A stretch of DNA of 64,000 bases from an uncultured Clostridia bacterium (GTDB taxonomy: Bacteria; Bacillota_I; Bacilli_A; RF39; UBA660): contig CAMNBS010000001.1 in assembly GCA_946533175.1 (NCBI GenBank), forward strand, positions 35,316 through 99,315. The letters are read 5' to 3'. Each line of letters starts with the position of its first letter. Position 1 is the first letter of the stretch. The position numbers were made by a program, and so were the translations under genes. Positions 1,919 to 59,537 of the stretch are shown piece by piece. The notes under the pieces are model-generated. The model did not search any database, was not told where the DNA came from, and saw only the letters and a list, made by a program, of their open reading frames with translations.

Positions 1919-3313
1919 TTATTCTCTAATTTCATAAATTGTACCGTCTCTTGTATCTTTTAAAATTATTCCCAATTCTTGTAAATGATTTCTAATTTCA
2001 TCAGCTTGTTGATAATCCTTATTCTTTTTAGCCTCGTTACGTTTTTCAATTAAATTTTCTATTTCTTTTTCATCAATATTTATATTCTTTTCTATTTCTT
2101 TTGTTAAATCAAGTGATAGTACTCCATCAAATTCATCAATCAATTTTAATTTTGTATAATCATTCATATCACTTTTTAAAACATCATAAACCGTTGTTAA
2201 AGCAAGAGATGTATTTAAATTATTATTCATACTATCAATAAATTGTTGTTGATATTTAGCATAATTATTATCTAATTTATCCTCTTGTCTACTTAATCCA
2301 CTAATACGTTTTTTTAATTTTAAATAAGCTTTTTCTGAACCAATTAAATTATCATACGAAAACATTAAAGGTTTACTATAATGACTAGACAAAACCATAT
2401 AACGATAAGAAAGAGGATTAAATCCTTTATTAATTAAAGTATCAACAGTAACAAATTCTCCATTACTCTTACTCATTTTACCATTGGCATCATTTAAATG
2501 CTCAACATGAAACCAATAATTACACCATTTGTGACCTAGATAAGCTTCACTTTGAGCTATTTCATTTGTATGATGAGGAAAAATATTATCAATCCCACCA
2601 CAATGAATATCTAAATATTCTCCCAAATATTTCATTGATATACCAGAACATTCAATATGCCAACCAGGATATCCTAATCCCCAAGGGGAAGACCATTTTA
2701 ATTCTTGATCATCAAACTTACTCTTTGTAAACCATAAAACAAAATCAGTTTTATTTTTTTTATTTGTATCAGCTAAAACATCTTCACGAGCTCCAACAAT
2801 CAAATCATCTTCATTATGATTAGTTAGGACGTAATAATTATCTAATTTAGAAGTATCAAAATATACATTGCCACCAGCAATATAAGCATAGCCTGTATCC
2901 AATAATTTACTGATGATTTTGATATATTCATTAATTAAACTAGTAGCGGGAATTACAGTATCTGGTTTTCGTATATTTAACTTTTCAGCATCTATAAAAA
3001 ATTTTTCAGTATAAAACTTCGCTATATCTAAGACACTTTTATGTTCATGTTTAGCACTTAAAACCATCTTATCAGATCCCAAATCTGAATCACCAGTTAA
3101 ATGTCCTACATCCGTTATATTCATAACACGATCAACTTTTAAACCAATATATTTTAAATATTTTTCTAAAACATCTTCACAAATATATGTACGCAAATTT
3201 CCTATATGAGCATAATGATATACTGTTGGTCCACAAGTATACATTTTAACAATACCAGACTTGTTTGGAACAAATTCTTCTATTTTCCTTGTTAAAGTGT
3301 TAAAGATTTCCAT
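1919..3313 (-). CDS. cysS: Cysteine--tRNA ligase
   Basis: HIGH-type motif (YAHIGNLRTY) and KMSKS motif (GKMSKSNGEF). Start reassigned to the ATG at 3313, which has a GGAGGT RBS 7 nt upstream; the ORF-track N-terminal extension lacks an RBS. Confidence 0.9.
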   Translation of the reverse strand: MEIFNTLTRKIEEFVPNKSGIVKMYTCGPTVYHYAHIGNLRTYICEDVLEKYLKYIGLKVDRVMNITDVGHLTGDSDLGSDKMVLSAKHEHKSVLDIAKFYTEKFFIDAEKLNIRKPDTVIPATSLINEYIKIISKLLDTGYAYIAGGNVYFDTSKLDNYYVLTNHNEDDLIVGAREDVLADTNKKNKTDFVLWFTKSKFDDQELKWSSPWGLGYPGWHIECSGISMKYLGEYLDIHCGGIDNIFPHHTNEIAQSEAYLGHKWCNYWFHVEHLNDANGKMSKSNGEFVTVDTLINKGFNPLSYRYMVLSSHYSKPLMFSYDNLIGSEKAYLKLKKRISGLSRQEDKLDNNYAKYQQQFIDSMNNNLNTSLALTTVYDVLKSDMNDYTKLKLIDEFDGVLSLDLTKEIEKNINIDEKEIENLIEKRNEAKKNKDYQQADEIRNHLQELGIILKDTRDGTIYEIRE

Positions 3314-7641: not shown

Positions 7642-9204
7642 TTATAAAACATTATCAATATTAATATCTTTATCTGTTATAGTTATTAAAACATCTTTAC
7701 GTTTCTTTTCTTTAGTATTAGTTGCATGCATAGTAACCGTTTTTTCATACATATTACGAACAAATCTTGCATTTCCAAAATTCTTCATGTTTTTATTTTT
7801 AATAATTATTTCTTTGGCTTTATCTAATGCGTCATTTGTAATTTTGAAACCTGCTTTATTAACCATTCCTTTAAATATTTCTAACAATTCATCTACAGTA
7901 TAATCTTTAAAATTTAAAGTATAGCCAATACGTGATGCAATACCTGAATTTGAATTAATAAAATCTTGCATCTCTTTTGTATAACCTGCAAAAATAACAA
8001 CTAAGTTATCACGATTATCTTCCATCGCTTTTATAAGTGTTGCAATAGCTTCATCATTATAAGAATTGTTTTTGCTGGATAAGGAATATGCTTCATCAAT
8101 AAATAATATTCCCCCTAAAGCTCTTTCAATAACACTGTATGTTTTTATTGCAGTTTGTCCAACATATTCCGCCACTAAATCTTTACTTGATACTTCAATT
8201 AGTTTATTTTCTTTAATATAACCTAAATTATATAAAATACCGGATAAACATCTAGCAACTGTCGTTTTACCAGTTCCAGGATTTCCTAAAAATAACATAT
8301 GTAAGTTAACATTAGCAATTTTTAAATCACTTTTTTCTTTTAAACTAATCAAATTAACCAAATCATACAATACCTTTTTTACATCATTAAGTCCAACCAA
8401 GTCATTAAGTTCAGAAAATATCTCTTCTGTACTCTTAACTTCTTTAATTTTAGGAACTTCTTTTTTAAAAGATAAATAATTTATTAATTTATCCCGATAA
8501 GATGAATAATTTATTATATCCTTATGCGTATTAGTAATATAATCTAATAATAATATATTATTAGATTCATCTAAACTAATCTTACTTAAAACTTCATGAT
8601 AAATATCCTGTATATCTGGAATAATTTCAATTAATTTAAAATTAAAGTACTTATTAGTAAGTTCATTATCAAAAGAAGTAAAAAGACTTATATCATCCTT
8701 ATTACCACTTAATAAGGTAATATGATTAGATAGATTATTTTTCAATTGATAAAGAAATAACTTTTTATTATTTTCATCAAGTAATAGAAATCCTTTTAGA
8801 TCAGTTAAAACAACAAGACCATTTTTATCATAAATATCTTTTATATCAACTTTATTTGATAATTCATACATTGATAATTTATATACACTATTATTCTTTA
8901 TATAATGATTATTTTTAACACTTTTTGAAAGTATTTCACTAATTTTATTGACATTTTCTGTGTCATTACTATCTATTATAATATTAAAATCAATATAATT
9001 TTTTTCTTCATTATTAGTATATTTACTCATATACTCAATTATTTGTTTAAGTAAGTTTTTAGATTCATTATCAATATATATAGAATTTATCTCATCTAAT
9101 ATATTAATTTCATCATCATTATTCTTCACTTTTTCTACGTTAATTTCATTCTTTTCTACTTTAAAAAAATCATTATATATATCATTAAAATATCTATTAT
9201 TCAT
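7642..9204 (-). CDS. AAA+ ATPase of the SpoVK/CbbX/EccA clade with a unique ~270-aa N-terminal extension
   Basis: Walker A LFLGNPGTGKTTVAR, Walker B ILFIDEAYSL, sensor region and ...FAGYTKEMQDF..., all typical of SpoVK/CbbX. N-terminal half is Asn/Lys-rich and unrecognised. Confidence 0.7.
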   Translation of the reverse strand: MNNRYFNDIYNDFFKVEKNEINVEKVKNNDDEINILDEINSIYIDNESKNLLKQIIEYMSKYTNNEEKNYIDFNIIIDSNDTENVNKISEILSKSVKNNHYIKNNSVYKLSMYELSNKVDIKDIYDKNGLVVLTDLKGFLLLDENNKKLFLYQLKNNLSNHITLLSGNKDDISLFTSFDNELTNKYFNFKLIEIIPDIQDIYHEVLSKISLDESNNILLLDYITNTHKDIINYSSYRDKLINYLSFKKEVPKIKEVKSTEEIFSELNDLVGLNDVKKVLYDLVNLISLKEKSDLKIANVNLHMLFLGNPGTGKTTVARCLSGILYNLGYIKENKLIEVSSKDLVAEYVGQTAIKTYSVIERALGGILFIDEAYSLSSKNNSYNDEAIATLIKAMEDNRDNLVVIFAGYTKEMQDFINSNSGIASRIGYTLNFKDYTVDELLEIFKGMVNKAGFKITNDALDKAKEIIIKNKNMKNFGNARFVRNMYEKTVTMHATNTKEKKRKDVLITITDKDINIDNVL

Positions 9205-9221
9205 AAAAACTCCTCGTCATT

Positions 9222-9250
9222 ATTGTATCAAATATCAATATTTATGGCAA
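9222..9250 (-). promoter_or_regulatory. Promoter of the AAA+ ATPase gene
   Basis: On the mRNA strand: -35 TTGCCA (plus 9245-9250), 17 nt, -10 TACAAT (plus 9222-9227), RBS GAGGAG, then the ATG at 9204. Confidence 0.5.
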
Positions 9251-9255
9251 ATACT

Positions 9256-9277
9256 TTATCCACATAATTGTGGATAA
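9256..9277. promoter_or_regulatory. Perfect 22-bp palindrome of two consensus DnaA boxes (TTATCCACA-TAAT-TGTGGATAA)
   Basis: Read directly. It ends 5 nt from the -35 of the AAA+ ATPase promoter and sits just after the telA terminator hairpin (9281-9299). Confidence 0.6.
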
Positions 9278-9280
9278 AAA

Positions 9281-9299
9281 AATAAGCCTTAAGCTTATT
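9281..9299 (-). terminator. Putative terminator hairpin at the telA stop
   Basis: AATAAGC-CTTAA-GCTTATT followed by a U-run on the mRNA strand; AT-rich stem, so moderate strength. Confidence 0.35.
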
Positions 9300-10473
9300 C
9301 TTTTTCTTGAACATTGATTTCAAGTAATTTATCTTTAAGTTCCTTTTCAAGTTGTTCAAGTTCTTTTTCAGATTCTTGACGTTTAATTCGTCCATTTTGG
9401 TGAATTTCAATAACTTTATCAATTGTTTCCACAATATCTTGATTAGTCTTACGAATCGTTTCAATATCCACAATTGCGCGTTCTGATTCTTCAGCAATTT
9501 TAATTGAACCTTGTTTTAATGTTTCACTATTTTTCTTTAACATATCATTAGTAAGTTTTGATACAGCTTGTTGATTTTTAAGAGCTTTTTGGGCATTATT
9601 AATGCCAAGAGCAAGAACCATTTGATTCTTCCATAAAGGAATCGTATTTGTAATTGAACTTTGTATTTTTTCTACTAATTCTGCATCATTATTTTGTAAA
9701 AGTCTTATTTGTGGTGCCATTTGAATAGAAATCATTCTAGTCGTTTTTAAATCATATATTTTCTTTTCTAAACGATTAATAATTGCTTCCATATCTTGAA
9801 CCTTTTGTATATCTAAATGTTCTCCTGATTCTTCAGCTATCTTTTTTAATTTAGGTAGTTCAACTTCATTAAGTTCTTCTATCTTCTTTTCACCAGCAAT
9901 AATATATAAAGATATTTCTTTAAAATATTCTAAGTTTTTTTCATACATAGTATCAAATAAATTAATATCTTTTAACATTTGTAACTTATCTTTTTCAAGA
10001 CCATTTTCTATTGTGCCAATATTTTTTTCAATTTTATTATATTTGGCAATTAATTTATCAAACTCTCTTTTAGCAGTGGAAAATAGTTTTTCTAATAAAG
10101 ATCTCCTTTGATTATCATCAATAGCTTTATCAAAAGATTTAATTTCAGCAACTAAACTACCTAATAACTCTCCAACTTCACCAGTATCTTTTGTACGAAC
10201 ACTTTCTAAAACAGTATCTGAAAATTTAGAGATTTTTTCTTGTGCAGGAGCACCAAATTGTAATATCTGAGTTTGATCATAAACATTAATCTCATTATTG
10301 AACTTTTCAATTGCTTTTTTTTCTTCTTCGCTTAAATTATCATAATTAAGTGATTTTTCAATTTTAGCATCTGTTACTTTCTTTTCATCTACTAACTTTT
10401 CTAAATCTTCCTTTTCTTGATTACTCGTTTTAACTAATTTTAATTCCATTTTTTTCCTCCTATTTAAGACCAT
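9295..10473 (-). CDS. telA: Toxic anion resistance protein, TelA family (YaaN/YceH-like)
   Basis: Architecture and motifs of Bacillus TelA homologues: QILQFGAPAQEKISKFSDTVLESVRTKDTGEVG, LYIIAGEKKIEELNEVELPKL, QIRLLQNNDAELVEKIQSSITNTIPLWKNQ, C-terminal EKELEQLEKELKDKLLE. Confidence 0.8.
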   Translation of the reverse strand: MVLNRRKKMELKLVKTSNQEKEDLEKLVDEKKVTDAKIEKSLNYDNLSEEEKKAIEKFNNEINVYDQTQILQFGAPAQEKISKFSDTVLESVRTKDTGEVGELLGSLVAEIKSFDKAIDDNQRRSLLEKLFSTAKREFDKLIAKYNKIEKNIGTIENGLEKDKLQMLKDINLFDTMYEKNLEYFKEISLYIIAGEKKIEELNEVELPKLKKIAEESGEHLDIQKVQDMEAIINRLEKKIYDLKTTRMISIQMAPQIRLLQNNDAELVEKIQSSITNTIPLWKNQMVLALGINNAQKALKNQQAVSKLTNDMLKKNSETLKQGSIKIAEESERAIVDIETIRKTNQDIVETIDKVIEIHQNGRIKRQESEKELEQLEKELKDKLLEINVQEKE

Positions 10474-11641
10474 TAATTAAAGCATTATATTCATTCATTT
10501 TAAGTCCTGATATTGTACTTGTTATTTCTTGTGGTACTGGAATACCTATTTTAGATACATCATATTTACCACCTGTTACACCCGTTCTAAATCCATATTT
10601 TTCCCAAGCAATTTGCTGAATACGATCATTTTCTTCAAAAGCTTTATAAAGAATTTCACCTTCTTCAGTAAAATACATATAGCAGTGATTATTCCATGAT
10701 GTTGGTTTTGGATAAAGAATCCTGATTCGATCTTTTACTTGTTCAAATCCCTTTGGATTTGAATTAGAAAAATCAATAATACTCTTTTCATAATCAACAA
10801 TTATTTTTTGAGTTCCCATACCAGCTCGTAAATATTCTTGAAATAAATCGGCTGGTGTAAAACGCATATTACCAGATTTAATATACAACTCTTTTAGTTT
10901 TGGCATATTTGCCTTTACATTAGCTTCAGTTATTTCACCATGAGATAAAATACCAAGTAATAATCCATAGTAAGTAGCTCCTGGACTAGATTTTACTGGA
11001 TCAATTGATGAAATACCAACATTACCATATATATCATCAGAAACCCCAAGTTCGCTCCATTTTTTACCATTTAAGATATAACTTACTAATTTTTCCATAT
11101 CTTTGACATAATAAATTCCATCTTTTTCTTCCGCTAAATTATTAGCAATTAAGGCATCAACAATTTTATCCCAACTATAAAAAACAATTGGCGTATTTAG
11201 AGTTAATCCTCCACCTAAAACAGTATATCTTTCAGCCTCTCCTTCTAGTGGACGTTGTTTATAATAGTCATAATATCGAATATCCGAAGTAAACAAAGCA
11301 TCATATTTTGTAACATCTGGACTATTAATAGTAAATTTTTCTCCATTACTCATACGATTAATTATACTTTGATTACCTAATCCAATAGTTTCACGAATTA
11401 AAGGACTAGATACTGTTTTACTATTACTCCAAGTATCAAAAACAACATTAAGTTTATATTCTTTTCGTAAAATTTCTAATACTTCCTCATCTTTTAGAAA
11501 ATCTTCTTTTCCACCACCAGTAGCAACATATATTGTTGTTAAATTACTATTTAATACTTCATTACCAAAATTCTTATATAAAATAATTGCCAGAATTAAA
11601 ACAATTAATATAACAATACCAATTATTCGCTTTTTATTCAT
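10460..11641 (-). CDS. Hypothetical membrane-anchored extracytoplasmic protein (N-terminal TM, ~370-aa ectodomain, possibly PBP-like fold)
   Basis: Start placed at MNKKRIIGIVILIVLILAIIL (ATG 11641), which overlaps the stop of the upstream gene by 8 nt (translational coupling). A single N-terminal TM helix. No family recognised. Confidence 0.5.
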   Translation of the reverse strand: MNKKRIIGIVILIVLILAIILYKNFGNEVLNSNLTTIYVATGGGKEDFLKDEEVLEILRKEYKLNVVFDTWSNSKTVSSPLIRETIGLGNQSIINRMSNGEKFTINSPDVTKYDALFTSDIRYYDYYKQRPLEGEAERYTVLGGGLTLNTPIVFYSWDKIVDALIANNLAEEKDGIYYVKDMEKLVSYILNGKKWSELGVSDDIYGNVGISSIDPVKSSPGATYYGLLLGILSHGEITEANVKANMPKLKELYIKSGNMRFTPADLFQEYLRAGMGTQKIIVDYEKSIIDFSNSNPKGFEQVKDRIRILYPKPTSWNNHCYMYFTEEGEILYKAFEENDRIQQIAWEKYGFRTGVTGGKYDVSKIGIPVPQEITSTISGLKMNEYNALINGLK

Positions 11642-12254
11642 CTTCATCACCACTTTCCAATATACTCTCATCATATCCATCAGATTTAAGTATAGCATTA
11701 TATACTTTCATTTCTGCTTCAGCATTAGCTATGTCACTTTGATATAAACTATTTAAAATTTTTTTAAAAGACTTATCGGTATCTTTGATAATCCGTTGGC
11801 CATCTTCCATAAACTTTTTACTATCATGACTAGTTAATTTTTGATTTTCAATTTCATCATATCCATCAATAATTTTTACACAAACCGGTAAATAATAATC
11901 TAAGAATTTATTCGATGTTTTATTTTTCAAACCATTCTTTTCAATAAAATCAATTATTTTAGTAGTAGATTTATTAATCTCTTCTAAATTCTTTTGAACT
12001 TCACTACTCTCAATTTTATTAATCATTTCCTTTATATGTTTATTATTTTTTCTAGATACTTCAATTCTTTCTTTAAACGACAATTCTTTTTTTTCTTCAA
12101 CAATCTTAGTTCCGCCACTAACAATTAATTCGGATGCCGCAAAAGATGCAACTCCCATTAAAAGAGCGGGTGGAAGAGCAAGAGATAATCCAAGATAGCC
12201 AACAGCAAAAAAGCTAGCGCCAACAATACTTGATATTATATTTTTATTCTTCAT
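11634..12254 (-). CDS. XpaC-like small membrane protein (two N-terminal TM helices plus a coiled cytoplasmic domain)
   Basis: 206 aa, two N-terminal TM helices, then a charged helical domain. Size and architecture match XpaC, which in Bacillus is encoded next to the TelA homologue yaaN. Confidence 0.4.
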   Translation of the reverse strand: MKNKNIISSIVGASFFAVGYLGLSLALPPALLMGVASFAASELIVSGGTKIVEEKKELSFKERIEVSRKNNKHIKEMINKIESSEVQKNLEEINKSTTKIIDFIEKNGLKNKTSNKFLDYYLPVCVKIIDGYDEIENQKLTSHDSKKFMEDGQRIIKDTDKSFKKILNSLYQSDIANAEAEMKVYNAILKSDGYDESILESGDEDE

Positions 12255-12255
12255 A

Positions 12256-13863
12256 CTAATTATAACCTCTTACCGTTTTAAAGGCATCTAATAAACTATT
12301 CCGTCCATCAAATACTTTTCCATTCGATAATGAAGACATATCATTCAATTGGCTATAACTAGCATCACCAAAAGTAATAGAATAAATAGGTATTTCTTTT
12401 TTTAGCTCATTATATCCTTTTTCTAAATCACTAAAAGAACCAATATTACCAACACCATCTGTCATAATAATAACTGATGAATTATAATTATCATTTTCTT
12501 CTTGTAGTATCTTCATTGCTTCTAAAGCTGCTGGAAATAAAGATGTTGCTCCCATTAACGATTGTTTATTAATTTCATCTAATAAATACTTCGTATTATT
12601 TCCTTTTGCACTCCAAGGCTTATTAACAGATGATCCAAATGCAATAACATCTATTTTATCTTCTTCCGTAAATTGAATCATACTACTATTAGCTTGATCA
12701 CTAAATAAATAAGCCATAGCATCTTTTAAATCATTAATTCCCTTTCCAGACATACTACCAGAATAATCTAAACAAAAAACAACATGAACTGGTTTTTTTA
12801 ATTTAGTTTGATATAAAAGCAACGCCTCTTTAATAACCTCATCACTAGGATACTTCACTGGAGAAATATACTTTGTTGTATCAATTCCCCAATCTTTATT
12901 AAAAATATCACTTGGAGCATTGGTGGTTGTTCCACCATACCAAGTACGTCGTCCTAATTTTAATAAAGTTTCCTGTCCTTCACCACTTAAAATAAAATCT
13001 TGAAGTTTTAAGAAAGCTTCTTTTTTCTTAGCATTTTTATTATCTATATATACTAAAGGTGAATCAGAAATAGTAACACCATCAATAGGATATATAGCAT
13101 ATAATATATCTTTATTTTGTTTTGTTAATTCCTTATTAATATTAATTATTGATGCCTCATATGTAAAAGCTGCATCATAGTCACCATTGATAAAAGATTT
13201 TTCAAGAAAGTCTTCATCTCCGCTTGTTCTCTTAAGACCAGAGAAAAAACTTTTCAAATCATTTTGTAGTGCAATACTTTTTAAATCTTTACTAGTTAAT
13301 ACATCTGGATTACCCGCTAAAGTACTTAAAATATTTAAATAACTAGAGGCTCCACTATTAGTTGTTACAGGATTAGCCATACTAAAGGTTAATTTACCAG
13401 ATTTAATTAATTCTAGTAATTCCTTCATAGTAACATTTTTACCAATTAAACCTAACTCTTTAGCCTTAGCTTTTTTTATTCCAAAAGTAACAGGTGTAAT
13501 ACTTGTTGACTTTAATTCACTTGTAGAAACATTTTTAATCATATTTAACCAAATAGAATTACTAGCCCAAATAGCATCATACTTTTCACCAGTATTAATC
13601 TTATCAACTATTTCTAAATTATCTGCATAAACAACTTGAACCTTAATACCATTTTCAGATAAATACTTTTTCATTGTTTCTTCTAATACTTTATTTTCAG
13701 GAGTTGTTATTAAACTAAACGTATTATCACTATAGACATATTCATCATTATTTTCATATTTATTAATTATTTTATTAATTGTTTTTAAGATAAATGATGA
13801 TCCAAAATAAATAATAACAATTACTATTAAAATTGACCAAAAATTAAACTTACTTTTATCCAT
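12256..13863 (-). CDS. Membrane-anchored fusion: N-terminal TM, PstS/ModA-like solute-binding-fold domain, C-terminal von Willebrand factor A (vWA) domain
   Basis: N-terminal TM (FWSILIVIVIIYFGSSFIL). Central region resembles type-2 periplasmic-binding fold. C-terminus has the vWA MIDAS motif VVFCLDYSGSMSGKG plus ...VIIMTDGVGN. Confidence 0.65.
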   Translation of the reverse strand: MDKSKFNFWSILIVIVIIYFGSSFILKTINKIINKYENNDEYVYSDNTFSLITTPENKVLEETMKKYLSENGIKVQVVYADNLEIVDKINTGEKYDAIWASNSIWLNMIKNVSTSELKSTSITPVTFGIKKAKAKELGLIGKNVTMKELLELIKSGKLTFSMANPVTTNSGASSYLNILSTLAGNPDVLTSKDLKSIALQNDLKSFFSGLKRTSGDEDFLEKSFINGDYDAAFTYEASIININKELTKQNKDILYAIYPIDGVTISDSPLVYIDNKNAKKKEAFLKLQDFILSGEGQETLLKLGRRTWYGGTTTNAPSDIFNKDWGIDTTKYISPVKYPSDEVIKEALLLYQTKLKKPVHVVFCLDYSGSMSGKGINDLKDAMAYLFSDQANSSMIQFTEEDKIDVIAFGSSVNKPWSAKGNNTKYLLDEINKQSLMGATSLFPAALEAMKILQEENDNYNSSVIIMTDGVGNIGSFSDLEKGYNELKKEIPIYSITFGDASYSQLNDMSSLSNGKVFDGRNSLLDAFKTVRGYN

Positions 13864-33182: not shown

Positions 33183-33345
33183 TTTGCCTCCTTTATATTA
33201 TTATCTATTTCCTGTTACCATAAATAAAAGTCCTTATAGCATAGAATAAGGACTTTAATTCATAAAGATTCTTGTCCTCGGTAGGATTTACATATTACCT
33301 ACTGTCTATGGCACCAACAAACATAGTTATTATAACATAATTTTA
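33183..33345 (-). promoter_or_regulatory. rplJ 5' leader (candidate L10(L12)4-binding autoregulatory leader)
   Basis: 163-nt untranslated gap between rplA and rplJ with two stable hairpins (AAGTCCTTAT...ATAAGGACTT; GGTAGG...CCTACT), as expected for the Firmicute L10 leader. Confidence 0.3.
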
Positions 33346-34044
33346 TTATTTGTCAAATGAATTTAGACTAATTTTAATACCAGGTCCCATTGTACTAGAA
33401 ATGGAAATATTTTTTACAAAATCTCCTTTAACAGTAGATGGTTTTAACTTAATAATAGTTGTAACAAAACTATCTAAATTTTCAACTAATTTTCCTTCGT
33501 CAAAACTAGCTTTACCAATGATACTATGAATATTACCAAATGTATCAGTACGATATTCAACACGTCCAGCTTTAACATCGTTAATTGCCTTAGCAACATC
33601 ATTAGTAACTGTTCCAGTCTTTGGATTAGGCATTAATCCTTTAGGTCCTAAAACACGTCCTAATTTACCAAGAAGCGGCATTGTTTCAGGTGTTGCAATT
33701 AAAGTATCAAAACCAAACCAGTTTTCTTTTTCAATTTTTTCTAACATGTCAGTATCACCAACAAAATCAGCACCAGCTTCACGAGCTATCTTAGCTTGAT
33801 CTCCTTTAGCAATAACTAAAACTTTTTTGTCCTTTCCAGTACCATTAGGTAAAAGAATAGCTCCACGTAATTGTTGATCAGCTTTTTTAGTGTCAACATT
33901 TAAATTCATAGCTATTTCAATAGTAGCATCAAACTTACTATTTGAAGTTTCTTTTACTAATTTACAAGCTTCTTCTTTAGAATATAAACGACCTTTTTCA
34001 ATTTTAGATACAGCTTCGTTATATCTTTTTCCTCTTTTTTTCAT
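33346..34044 (-). CDS. rplA: 50S ribosomal protein L1
   Basis: Typical L1 (KRGKRY..., [15 protein letters not shown]). Confidence 0.9.
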
Positions 34045-58175: not shown

Positions 58176-59537
58176 ATGAACAATGACCTTTTATGGTCAA
58201 AAGTCTTAAATAAAATCCAAACCGAAGTTAATTCAATTGTTTTTAAAACATGGTTTAAAGAAACAAAACTTTATACCATCGAGAATAATATTGCTACTAT
58301 AATTGTTCCAATGGAAATACATAGAAAACGTCTTTTGGACACTTATAAAGATTTAATTACCGGAGCTTTACTTGAAATAACCAATGTAATATATGATATT
58401 AATATTTTATTGGAGGATGAAATAATTATTAACAAAGAAGTGGATATTTCTATTCCAAAGAAAGAAGAAACAATTACTTTTAAGCACGCTTCTAATCTTA
58501 TTAAATCATATAATTTTGAAAACTTTGTTGTTGGAAATAGTAATAAACTTGCCCATGCATCAGCTCTAGCGGTTGCTGAAGCTCCAGGTCAAACATATAA
58601 TCCACTTTTTTTATATGGAAGTAGTGGGCTTGGAAAAACCCATTTAATGCATGCGATTGGTAATTATATTGAAGAAAACAGTAATAAAAAAGTATTATAT
58701 GTTTCATCACAACAATTTATTGATGATTTTTCTAAAATAAGTAGAAGAGATGATAATAACAAAACTAATTATGATTATGCCGATTATTTTAAAAATAAGT
58801 ATCGTTCATTAGATGTTTTAATTATTGATGATATACAATTTCTCGCAACGAAACCTAAAACACAAGAAGAATTTTTTCATACTTTTAATATACTATATAA
58901 TGATAATAAACAAATTATTATATCAAGCGATCGCTCACCAAATGATTTGAAATTATTAGAAGAACGTTTAAAAACAAGATTCTGTTGGGGATTAACAGTA
59001 GATATTTATCCTCCAGAATTTGAATTAAGGAAAAACATTTTAAAGAAAAAAATTCAAGGTGCTAATATTCATCAAAAAATACCTGATGATGTTATTGAAT
59101 ATATTGCCTCTAATATGACTAGCGATGTAAGAAATTTGGAAGGCGCTATTAATAGGTTAATGGCTTATTCATTAATGATGGGATATAATGAAATCAATTT
59201 ACCAATGGCTGTTGATGCTTTAAAAGATACTATTAATAAAGGAACAAGTGAAAAGACTAATATATTAAAAGTCCAAAAAGCTGTTGCCGATTATTTTCAA
59301 ATCTCTGTTGATGATTTAAAAAGTAAAAAAAGAAGTGCTTCAATTGCTTTTCCTAGACAGATAGCAATGTATTTATCTAGAACAATTTTAAATGAATCAT
59401 TTGAGCGTATTGGACTTGAATTTGGAGGAAAAGACCATTCTACGGTAATGCATTCATGCGATAAGATAAAAGGGGAAATAAATAATAATATGGAAATAAA
59501 AAATTCAGTTGAAAAAATTAAAGAAAGTATTCTATAA
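58176..59537 (+). CDS. dnaA: Chromosomal replication initiator protein DnaA
   Basis: AAA+ motifs (YGSSGLGKTHLMHAIG), box VII and C-terminal DNA-binding domain; RBS GGGAGGTGAGG. Confidence 0.95.
   Translation: MNNDLLWSKVLNKIQTEVNSIVFKTWFKETKLYTIENNIATIIVPMEIHRKRLLDTYKDLITGALLEITNVIYDINILLEDEIIINKEVDISIPKKEETITFKHASNLIKSYNFENFVVGNSNKLAHASALAVAEAPGQTYNPLFLYGSSGLGKTHLMHAIGNYIEENSNKKVLYVSSQQFIDDFSKISRRDDNNKTNYDYADYFKNKYRSLDVLIIDDIQFLATKPKTQEEFFHTFNILYNDNKQIIISSDRSPNDLKLLEERLKTRFCWGLTVDIYPPEFELRKNILKKKIQGANIHQKIPDDVIEYIASNMTSDVRNLEGAINRLMAYSLMMGYNEINLPMAVDALKDTINKGTSEKTNILKVQKAVADYFQISVDDLKSKKRSASIAFPRQIAMYLSRTILNESFERIGLEFGGKDHSTVMHSCDKIKGEINNNMEIKNSVEKIKESIL

Follow-up and report, generated by a model that had tools for sequence, protein, structure and literature searches.

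Extra-origin DnaA boxes beside promoters are already well known. In B. subtilis, DnaA sites that are stable in vivo require approximately four or more clustered boxes, with individual clusters holding between four and eight of them (PMC2533591). Such clusters are found near oriC in Bacillus species, where they precede genes that differ from species to species and restrain initiation (PMC3245932). The E. coli nrdAB upstream sequence, TTATCCACA-AAG-TTATGCACT-TGCAAG, places two boxes directly against the -35, one of them a perfect consensus, and DnaA either stimulates or represses nrdAB depending upon its level and nucleotide state (PMC8203912). The core of DARS1, as read from the E. coli MG1655 sequence, is TTATCCACT-ATTCC-TGTGGATAA-CCA-TGTGTATTA, and in both DARS1 and DARS2, boxes I and II of the core are convergent (i.e. 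head-to-head) and separated by a short spacer (PMC6868365). The A-site of the ABC primosome, which belongs to the single-stranded replication intermediates of plasmids and phages in E. coli, is a stable single-strand hairpin carrying a duplex DnaA box within its stem (PMC6127211).

We examined a 64-kb stretch of DNA (hereafter, the window) from an uncultured low-GC gut/rumen Bacilli lineage, in which a pair of perfect DnaA boxes is located upstream of a gene encoding an AAA+ ATPase. The features of this region are as follows:

7642-9204, minus strand: AAA+ ATPase of 520 aa with AAA and AAA_lid_6 domains (CbbX/SpoVK/EccA-like), preceded by an N-terminal region of ~260 aa without an assigned domain
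9202-9215, minus strand: presumed ribosome binding site GAGGAG (9210-9215), TTTTT, and the ATG start codon (9202-9204)
9222-9250, minus strand: TTGCCA-17-TACAAT, a promoter of the sigma-70/sigma-A type (10 of 12 matches) whose -10 is extended by TG
9255-9278, no strand: whole inverted repeat, arms of 10 bp and a loop of 4 nt
9256-9264, plus strand: promoter-proximal DnaA box, perfect TTATCCACA, at ~-41 to -49 from the presumed transcription start
9265-9268, no strand: 4-bp spacer TAAT as read from the sequence, not self-complementary
9269-9277, minus strand: distal DnaA box, perfect TTATCCACA, at ~-54 to -62 from the presumed start
9278-9302, minus strand: hairpin of the telA operon resembling an intrinsic terminator, AAUAAGC-UUAAG-GCUUAUU and then U7, including the telA stop codon (9295-9297)
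9295-10473, minus strand: telA (PF05816, E = 1e-116), the final gene of the series 9295-13863
10460-11698, minus strand: protein of unknown function, located between the XpaC-like gene and telA
11634-12254, minus strand: XpaC-like protein
12256-13863, minus strand: VWA/solute-binding protein (SBP), the first gene of the series

Both arms of the repeat match the DnaA consensus TTATCCACA at 9/9 positions, and the boxes, at 9256-9264 (plus strand) and 9269-9277 (minus strand), are convergent with 4 bp between them, which confirms a preliminary description of this locus as two consensus boxes arranged head-to-head. That description had also referred to a 22-bp perfect palindrome. However, the reverse complement of TAAT is ATTA and the element is instead a perfect inverted repeat with 10-bp arms (9255-9264 and 9269-9278). 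The final two bases of the distal box are also the end of the telA terminator T-tract. When folded as single-stranded DNA, the repeat yields -8.3 kcal/mol (z = -5.2), with 0/200 shuffles folding equally well, and 9255-9278 accordingly has in common with the ABC-primosome A-site a stable hairpin with a duplex DnaA box in its stem (PMC6127211). Boxes are not enriched any further within 200 bp of the pair. The nearby relaxed boxes (≤1 mismatch to TTATNCACA) are just those at 9197 and 9464, which is chance density, and relaxed boxes likewise occur at chance density throughout the window (30 vs 25 expected and, with ≤1 mismatch to TTATNCACA, 125 vs 125 expected), indicating that no cluster surrounds the pair. 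Aside from oriC, the only other convergent pairs in the 64 kb are 2-mismatch matches (386, 19273, and 33862). The last of these, at 33862-33877, is a weak convergent half-site pair, TCCACGTAATTGTTGA, which also has a TAAT centre but 2 mismatches to the core and is probably due to chance.

We next considered how often such a pair would be expected by chance. The window contains five perfect boxes versus 0.92 expected, and 0/100 shuffles reach five. By our own arithmetic from the shuffle rate, two independent convergent boxes at a spacing of 0-12 would arise at ~4e-5 per window. The window also contains 26 perfect inverted repeats with arms of at least 9 bp, as compared to 9-21 in Markov simulations (about twice expectation), and these repeats provide ~126 nine-mer registers, from which a box-bearing repeat would be obtained by chance at ~1e-3 per window. 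Since a box in one arm of a hairpin automatically creates the second box, ~1e-3 is a fairer null than 4e-5. The earlier assertion that a consensus pair is rare by chance is therefore sound, with the estimate ranging from ~4e-5 per window for independent boxes to ~1e-3 for a box-carrying hairpin. The motif is real, and a chance origin is unlikely. A value of ~1e-3 is small, yet not negligible over a scan of many windows, which is why we retain a neutral origin as a serious rival explanation below.

The intergenic layout places the pair immediately beside a promoter. A plausible sigma-A promoter had been proposed 5 nt from the pair, and it was confirmed, with the -35 TTGCCA at 9250-9245, 17 nt, the -10 TACAAT at 9227-9222, and a gap of 5 nt between the proximal box and the -35. 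The telA-AAA+ gap of 90 nt is fully occupied by the terminator-like hairpin, the box pair, these 5 nt, the promoter, the ribosome binding site, and the ATG. If the start of transcription is taken near 9215, the pair would lie at ~-41 to -62 with its centre at ~-51.5. To examine the promoter among relatives, we aligned 84 nt through the ATG from eight loci, namely that of the window and seven related ones with 67-80% protein identity. All eight share the extended -10 TGnTAnAAT without change, at a constant distance from the start codon. For the -35, the window and the two relatives nearest to it have TTGCCA, TTGCCT, or TTGCTA. As the extended -10 is unchanged across all eight loci, the promoter beside the box pair is credible. 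Upstream of the -35, the same eight loci exhibit no conservation. Thus, with a conserved -10 and nothing conserved 5' of the -35, the promoter is older than the box pair. The predicted leader of the ATPase mRNA is very short, with 6 nt from the -10 to GAGGAG, and the relatives likewise have only ~9 nt between the -10 and the ribosome binding site. The possibility that the box repeat is itself a terminator was rejected, because neither strand has a U-tract after the repeat. What comes next is AAGUAUUUGCC on the minus strand and an A-run on the plus strand, and the repeat was not among the terminators that the scan called. A known RNA family was likewise rejected, as Rfam returned only sub-threshold chance matches (OrzO-P, 27 bits vs a cut-off of 60). 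Across the window, just one Rfam family scored above threshold, namely the ribosomal protein L10 leader RF00557 (52.9 bits, 33214-33329, minus strand).

The gene behind this promoter had been described as a SpoVK/CbbX-type ATPase, and this family resemblance was upheld at a level below the cut-offs: the best NCBIfam similarities are to SpoVK, CbbX, and EccA, all under their cut-offs, and among solved structures CbbX and EccA1 come closest. A DcuC-type transporter gene comes after the AAA+ gene in the direction of transcription, and all genes of the region are encoded on the minus strand, co-oriented with the leftward replication fork. Neither the gene list nor the family searches revealed a regulator gene adjoining the box pair, and nothing in the window points to a plasmid or phage context. 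A defence-system operon was also rejected, as PADLOC yielded only weak generic AAA+ matches. From the family, structure, and PADLOC searches, we found no replication link for the CbbX-like ATPase.

The window also includes dnaA and oriC, with the following features:

57952 and 58059: oriC matches to TTATNCACA
58071 (minus strand), 59576 (plus strand), and 59629 (plus strand): perfect oriC boxes flanking dnaA, from the consensus scan
58176-59537, plus strand: dnaA (TIGR00362, 508 bits)

The GC skew switches sign at dnaA, which is 48.9 kb from the box pair, placing the pair in the vicinity of oriC. Perfect and near-perfect boxes are present on both sides of dnaA, and the three perfect boxes of the 64 kb that remain besides the pair all flank this gene, in agreement with the earlier statement that the others occur only at oriC, 49 kb away. 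Hence, the host uses the same box consensus at its own oriC. The base-contact residues of DnaA domain IV are R399, P423, D433, H434, T435, and H439 (PMC2533591). In comparison with the E. coli protein, the host DnaA is identical at R399, D433, H434, and H439, while it has S in place of T435 and E in place of the base-contacting P423, even though its oriC retains consensus boxes.

When measured against the described systems, the locus is closest in promoter architecture to nrdAB, as two boxes lie beside the -35 in both, those of the window being of high affinity and next to a credible promoter. The nrdAB boxes are arranged in tandem at a distance of 3 bp and are joined by a third, ATP-DnaA-specific box, whereas those of the window face each other across 4 bp and end 5 nt short of the -35; we found no tandem arrangement and no third box at the site. 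The ATPase further differs from nrdAB in having no known link to DNA synthesis. The B. subtilis DnaA regulon (sda, ywlC, yydA, trmE, and others) is similar in its Firmicute-type genome, intergenic promoter-side location, and proximity to oriC, and a neighbouring gene that varies between species is a further likeness to the Bacillus clusters (PMC3245932). The B. subtilis clusters are stably bound and comprise 4-8 boxes, whereas the window has only two, though both are of the highest-affinity type. For this reason, the locus does not fit the sda and ywlC class to which it had been compared: two boxes with chance-level relaxed matches fall short of the four-box minimum, and the link to the ATPase is found in 0/84 orthologues. 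A role as a DnaA titration site, which had been offered as the other option, also fared poorly, as two boxes are a poor sink. The genes yaaN, xpaC, spoVK, and telA have no occurrences in the B. subtilis in vitro DnaA-binding tables.

We next examined whether the pair is found in relatives, using 84 orthologous loci (590 kb; 47-81% protein identity), of which 80 were obtained from a GTDB scan and four from ENA assemblies (80%). The 80 loci from the GTDB scan are rumen/gut MAGs labelled as Bacilli, Erysipelotrichaceae, Mollicutes, or Clostridia. The box pair is present upstream of the ATPase in 0/84 loci, including the closest ones (77-81% identity), and the databases searched contain no relative above 81% protein identity. 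There is also no convergent pair at a spacing of 0-12 anywhere in the 590 kb of relatives, while perfect single boxes number nine, which is the chance rate of ~1 per 64 kb. Four box-like matches at -55 to -67 had hinted at conservation, but those of L047, L013, and L057 are C-terminal codons of telA (..INVDK/INMDK..); at the fourth, L037, no start codon was found. In most of the orthologous loci, the ATPase gene directly follows telA, often with just a hairpin or adjoining stop and start codons between them, suggesting that the ancestral state was a single operon. This adjacency can be seen across L005-L060 (e.g. L030 at 2990-3003, L016, and L021). TelA and the ATPase thus look like parts of one conserved operon that also takes in the VWA/SBP, XpaC-like, and unknown genes preceding telA in the window. 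Only the subclade of the window (67-81% identity) has a separate ATPase promoter together with a shuffled upstream neighbour, which is gpsA, a His_Phos_1 gene, or, in the window, telA. The absence of the pair from 84 orthologous loci leaves no footprint of selection, and the pair is not a conserved cis-regulatory element of the AAA+ gene. Most likely, it is a recent lineage-specific gain.

The same arrangement recurs in unrelated DNA. The exact 22-mer TTATCCACATAATTGTGGATAA was detected in 22 metagenome contigs (L205-L226) with a GC content of 18-56%, as compared to an expectation that we estimate to be well below 1. Approximately nine of these copies (L207, L210, L212, L214, L215, L216, L219, L221, and L222) are embedded in dense oriC-like box clusters of unrelated contigs, some of which adjoin rpmH or dnaN, while the remaining copies are isolated intergenic pairs. 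The copy in the window differs from the oriC-internal ones in being isolated, 49 kb from oriC, and devoid of extra boxes, a DnaA-trio, or an unwinding element. The neighbours of the isolated copies include a methionine-gamma-lyase-family gene, prfB, comK/recF, pepA together with an EncFtn-like gene, a GST, and phage-like Xre/primase genes, and we found no neighbouring gene common to them. Unrelated neighbours of this kind fit a global factor such as DnaA rather than a local repressor.

An independent collection of viral contigs from phages and proviruses (L085-L204 and L228-L382) provided a comparison among box orientations. At a spacing of 4 bp, convergent pairs were found in 78 stretches (67 distinct flanking contexts), divergent pairs in three, and tandem pairs in at least 120, while a composition-matched scrambled inverted repeat was found in four. 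Over spacings of 0-12, convergent pairs are most frequent at 3, 5, and 6 bp, and the 4-bp spacers of the viral convergent pairs are mostly GC-rich (GCCC, ACCC, and CCCC). The strong excess over the controls indicates that convergent boxes at close spacing are in general under selection, which in turn supports DnaA as the ligand of the pair in the window and speaks against a local repressor. The orientation bias, in which convergent and tandem pairs are common and divergent pairs almost absent, bears upon how DnaA protomers pair on DNA, and together with the recurrence of the 22-mer across phyla may merit a systematic genome-wide survey.

From the sequence, we tentatively infer that DnaA binds both boxes and modulates the adjacent ATPase promoter as a recent lineage-specific acquisition, the most likely of the accounts considered, although it falls somewhat short of probable. 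The convergent boxes would constitute a single high-affinity site for the host DnaA, probably occupied by two protomers placed head-to-head, and the bound DnaA would touch or crowd RNA polymerase in the -35/UP-element zone, such that ATPase transcription would track the level of free DnaA, which itself would vary with replication status. As for the sign of the effect, we lean toward stimulation at ordinary DnaA levels, because the site is wholly upstream of the -35, as is the case for E. coli nrdAB and B. subtilis sda. The site would have been gained recently, in one lineage, on an older promoter. Several observations count against modulation by DnaA, namely the presence of only two boxes, the 0/84 orthologues, the change of P423 to E, and the ATPase having no replication link. 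The promoter is also already strong (10/12 matches and an extended -10), and may therefore be insensitive to an upstream factor. Overall, the pair resembles an ordinary additional DnaA site specific to its lineage, and does not look like a novel type of system. Should DnaA indeed act on it, one uncultured gut/rumen Bacilli lineage would have tied a CbbX/SpoVK-like remodelling ATPase from the TelA stress-operon family to replication status, and the locus would represent one more case in which DnaA regulons easily gain or lose members.

Among the alternatives, the one that we take most seriously, although we consider it unlikely, is a young neutral inverted repeat, such as a quasi-palindrome perfected by template switching around one chance box. 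A clade in which single perfect boxes occur about once per 64 kb would supply the starting box, inverted repeats are about twice as numerous as in the Markov simulations, a box in one arm brings its partner along automatically (hence ~1e-3 per window), and a pair missing from all relatives is what such an event would leave behind. Even so, the event is still improbable in a single window, and the repeat would need to have fallen by accident exactly between the terminator and the conserved promoter. The ~20-fold predominance of the convergent layout over scrambled and divergent controls in the viral contigs, as well as the presence of the exact 22-mer in oriC-like clusters of unrelated organisms, also argue against neutrality.

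It is rather unlikely as well that the pair is an auxiliary oriC-proximal DnaA site with no promoter role, serving to buffer or organize DnaA through titration, origin-domain structure, or as a roadblock behind the telA terminator. A site of this type could lie in front of any gene, and this accounts for the lack of a conserved gene link. The relatives are without the pair, and its position 49 kb from oriC is replicated early. The Bacillus clusters, too, change their neighbouring gene between species while keeping close to oriC, and they restrain initiation (PMC3245932). Nevertheless, two boxes would hold very few DnaA molecules in comparison with the 4-8 boxes of B. subtilis (PMC2533591), no more boxes are enriched within 200 bp, and the tight abutment to the -35 would have to be a coincidence.

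A broader and improbable interpretation is that convergent pairs are a distinct widespread module for a head-to-head DnaA dimer, like that at the DARS core, as opposed to the nucleation of an ordinary head-to-tail filament, with the isolated chromosomal copy in the Firmicute-like genome of the window being a minimal instance outside of oriC. This interpretation is compatible with the 78 convergent versus three divergent stretches and with a 22-mer that reappears in different phyla, and under it the module could, for example, alter the nucleotide state of DnaA or serve as a hairpin loading site.

There is little to recommend an operator of another dimeric helix-turn-helix regulator, the half-sites of which would merely resemble DnaA boxes. 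An inverted repeat beside a -35 is the classic layout for such an operator, and in the low-GC contig L226 a comK-like gene lies between two related CCACATAATTGTGG repeats. However, both arms of the window repeat match the DnaA consensus at 9/9 positions with no regulator gene adjacent, and the copies found elsewhere have unrelated neighbours, with many located among ordinary boxes in oriC-like regions. In L226, the two repeats are a perfect pair at 1333-1354 and a degenerate copy, TTTTCCACATAATTGTGGAGAAAA, ~541 bp away, and the comK-like gene that they flank sits between dnaN and recF.

To our knowledge, DARS has been established only in E. coli and its close relatives, and no cycle that reactivates ADP-DnaA is known to us from Firmicutes. 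A DARS-core-like site, in which head-to-head protomers destabilize bound ADP to regenerate ATP-DnaA, is correspondingly very doubtful. Boxes I and II of DARS1 are convergent as are those of the window (MG1655 sequence; PMC6868365), but they are separated by a spacer of 5 bp rather than 4 bp, and the essential box III, which is in tandem to box II in DARS, is missing on both sides of the window pair: at the corresponding slot 3 bp beyond either box, the left flank has 3/9 matches and the right flank has nothing box-like.

Helicase loading in Firmicutes proceeds via DnaD/DnaB/DnaI, and we know of no evidence for an ABC-primosome A-site pathway in these organisms, which counts against the last alternative. 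Although the hairpin (-8.3 kcal/mol, z = -5.2) has a precedent in the ABC primosome (PMC6127211) and phage-like contigs are rich in convergent pairs, including one beside an apparent primase gene, the chromosomal location of the pair far from any origin or mobile element makes a single-strand A-site that recruits DnaA for helicase loading or priming the least probable reading. The phage-/plasmid-like contig concerned, L217, carries its pair at 1012-1033, with an Xre-like HTH gene on one side and a small gene on the other; the apparent primase gene (its translation judged by eye) comes after the small gene, and this pair may be part of a mobile-element origin that uses the host DnaA.
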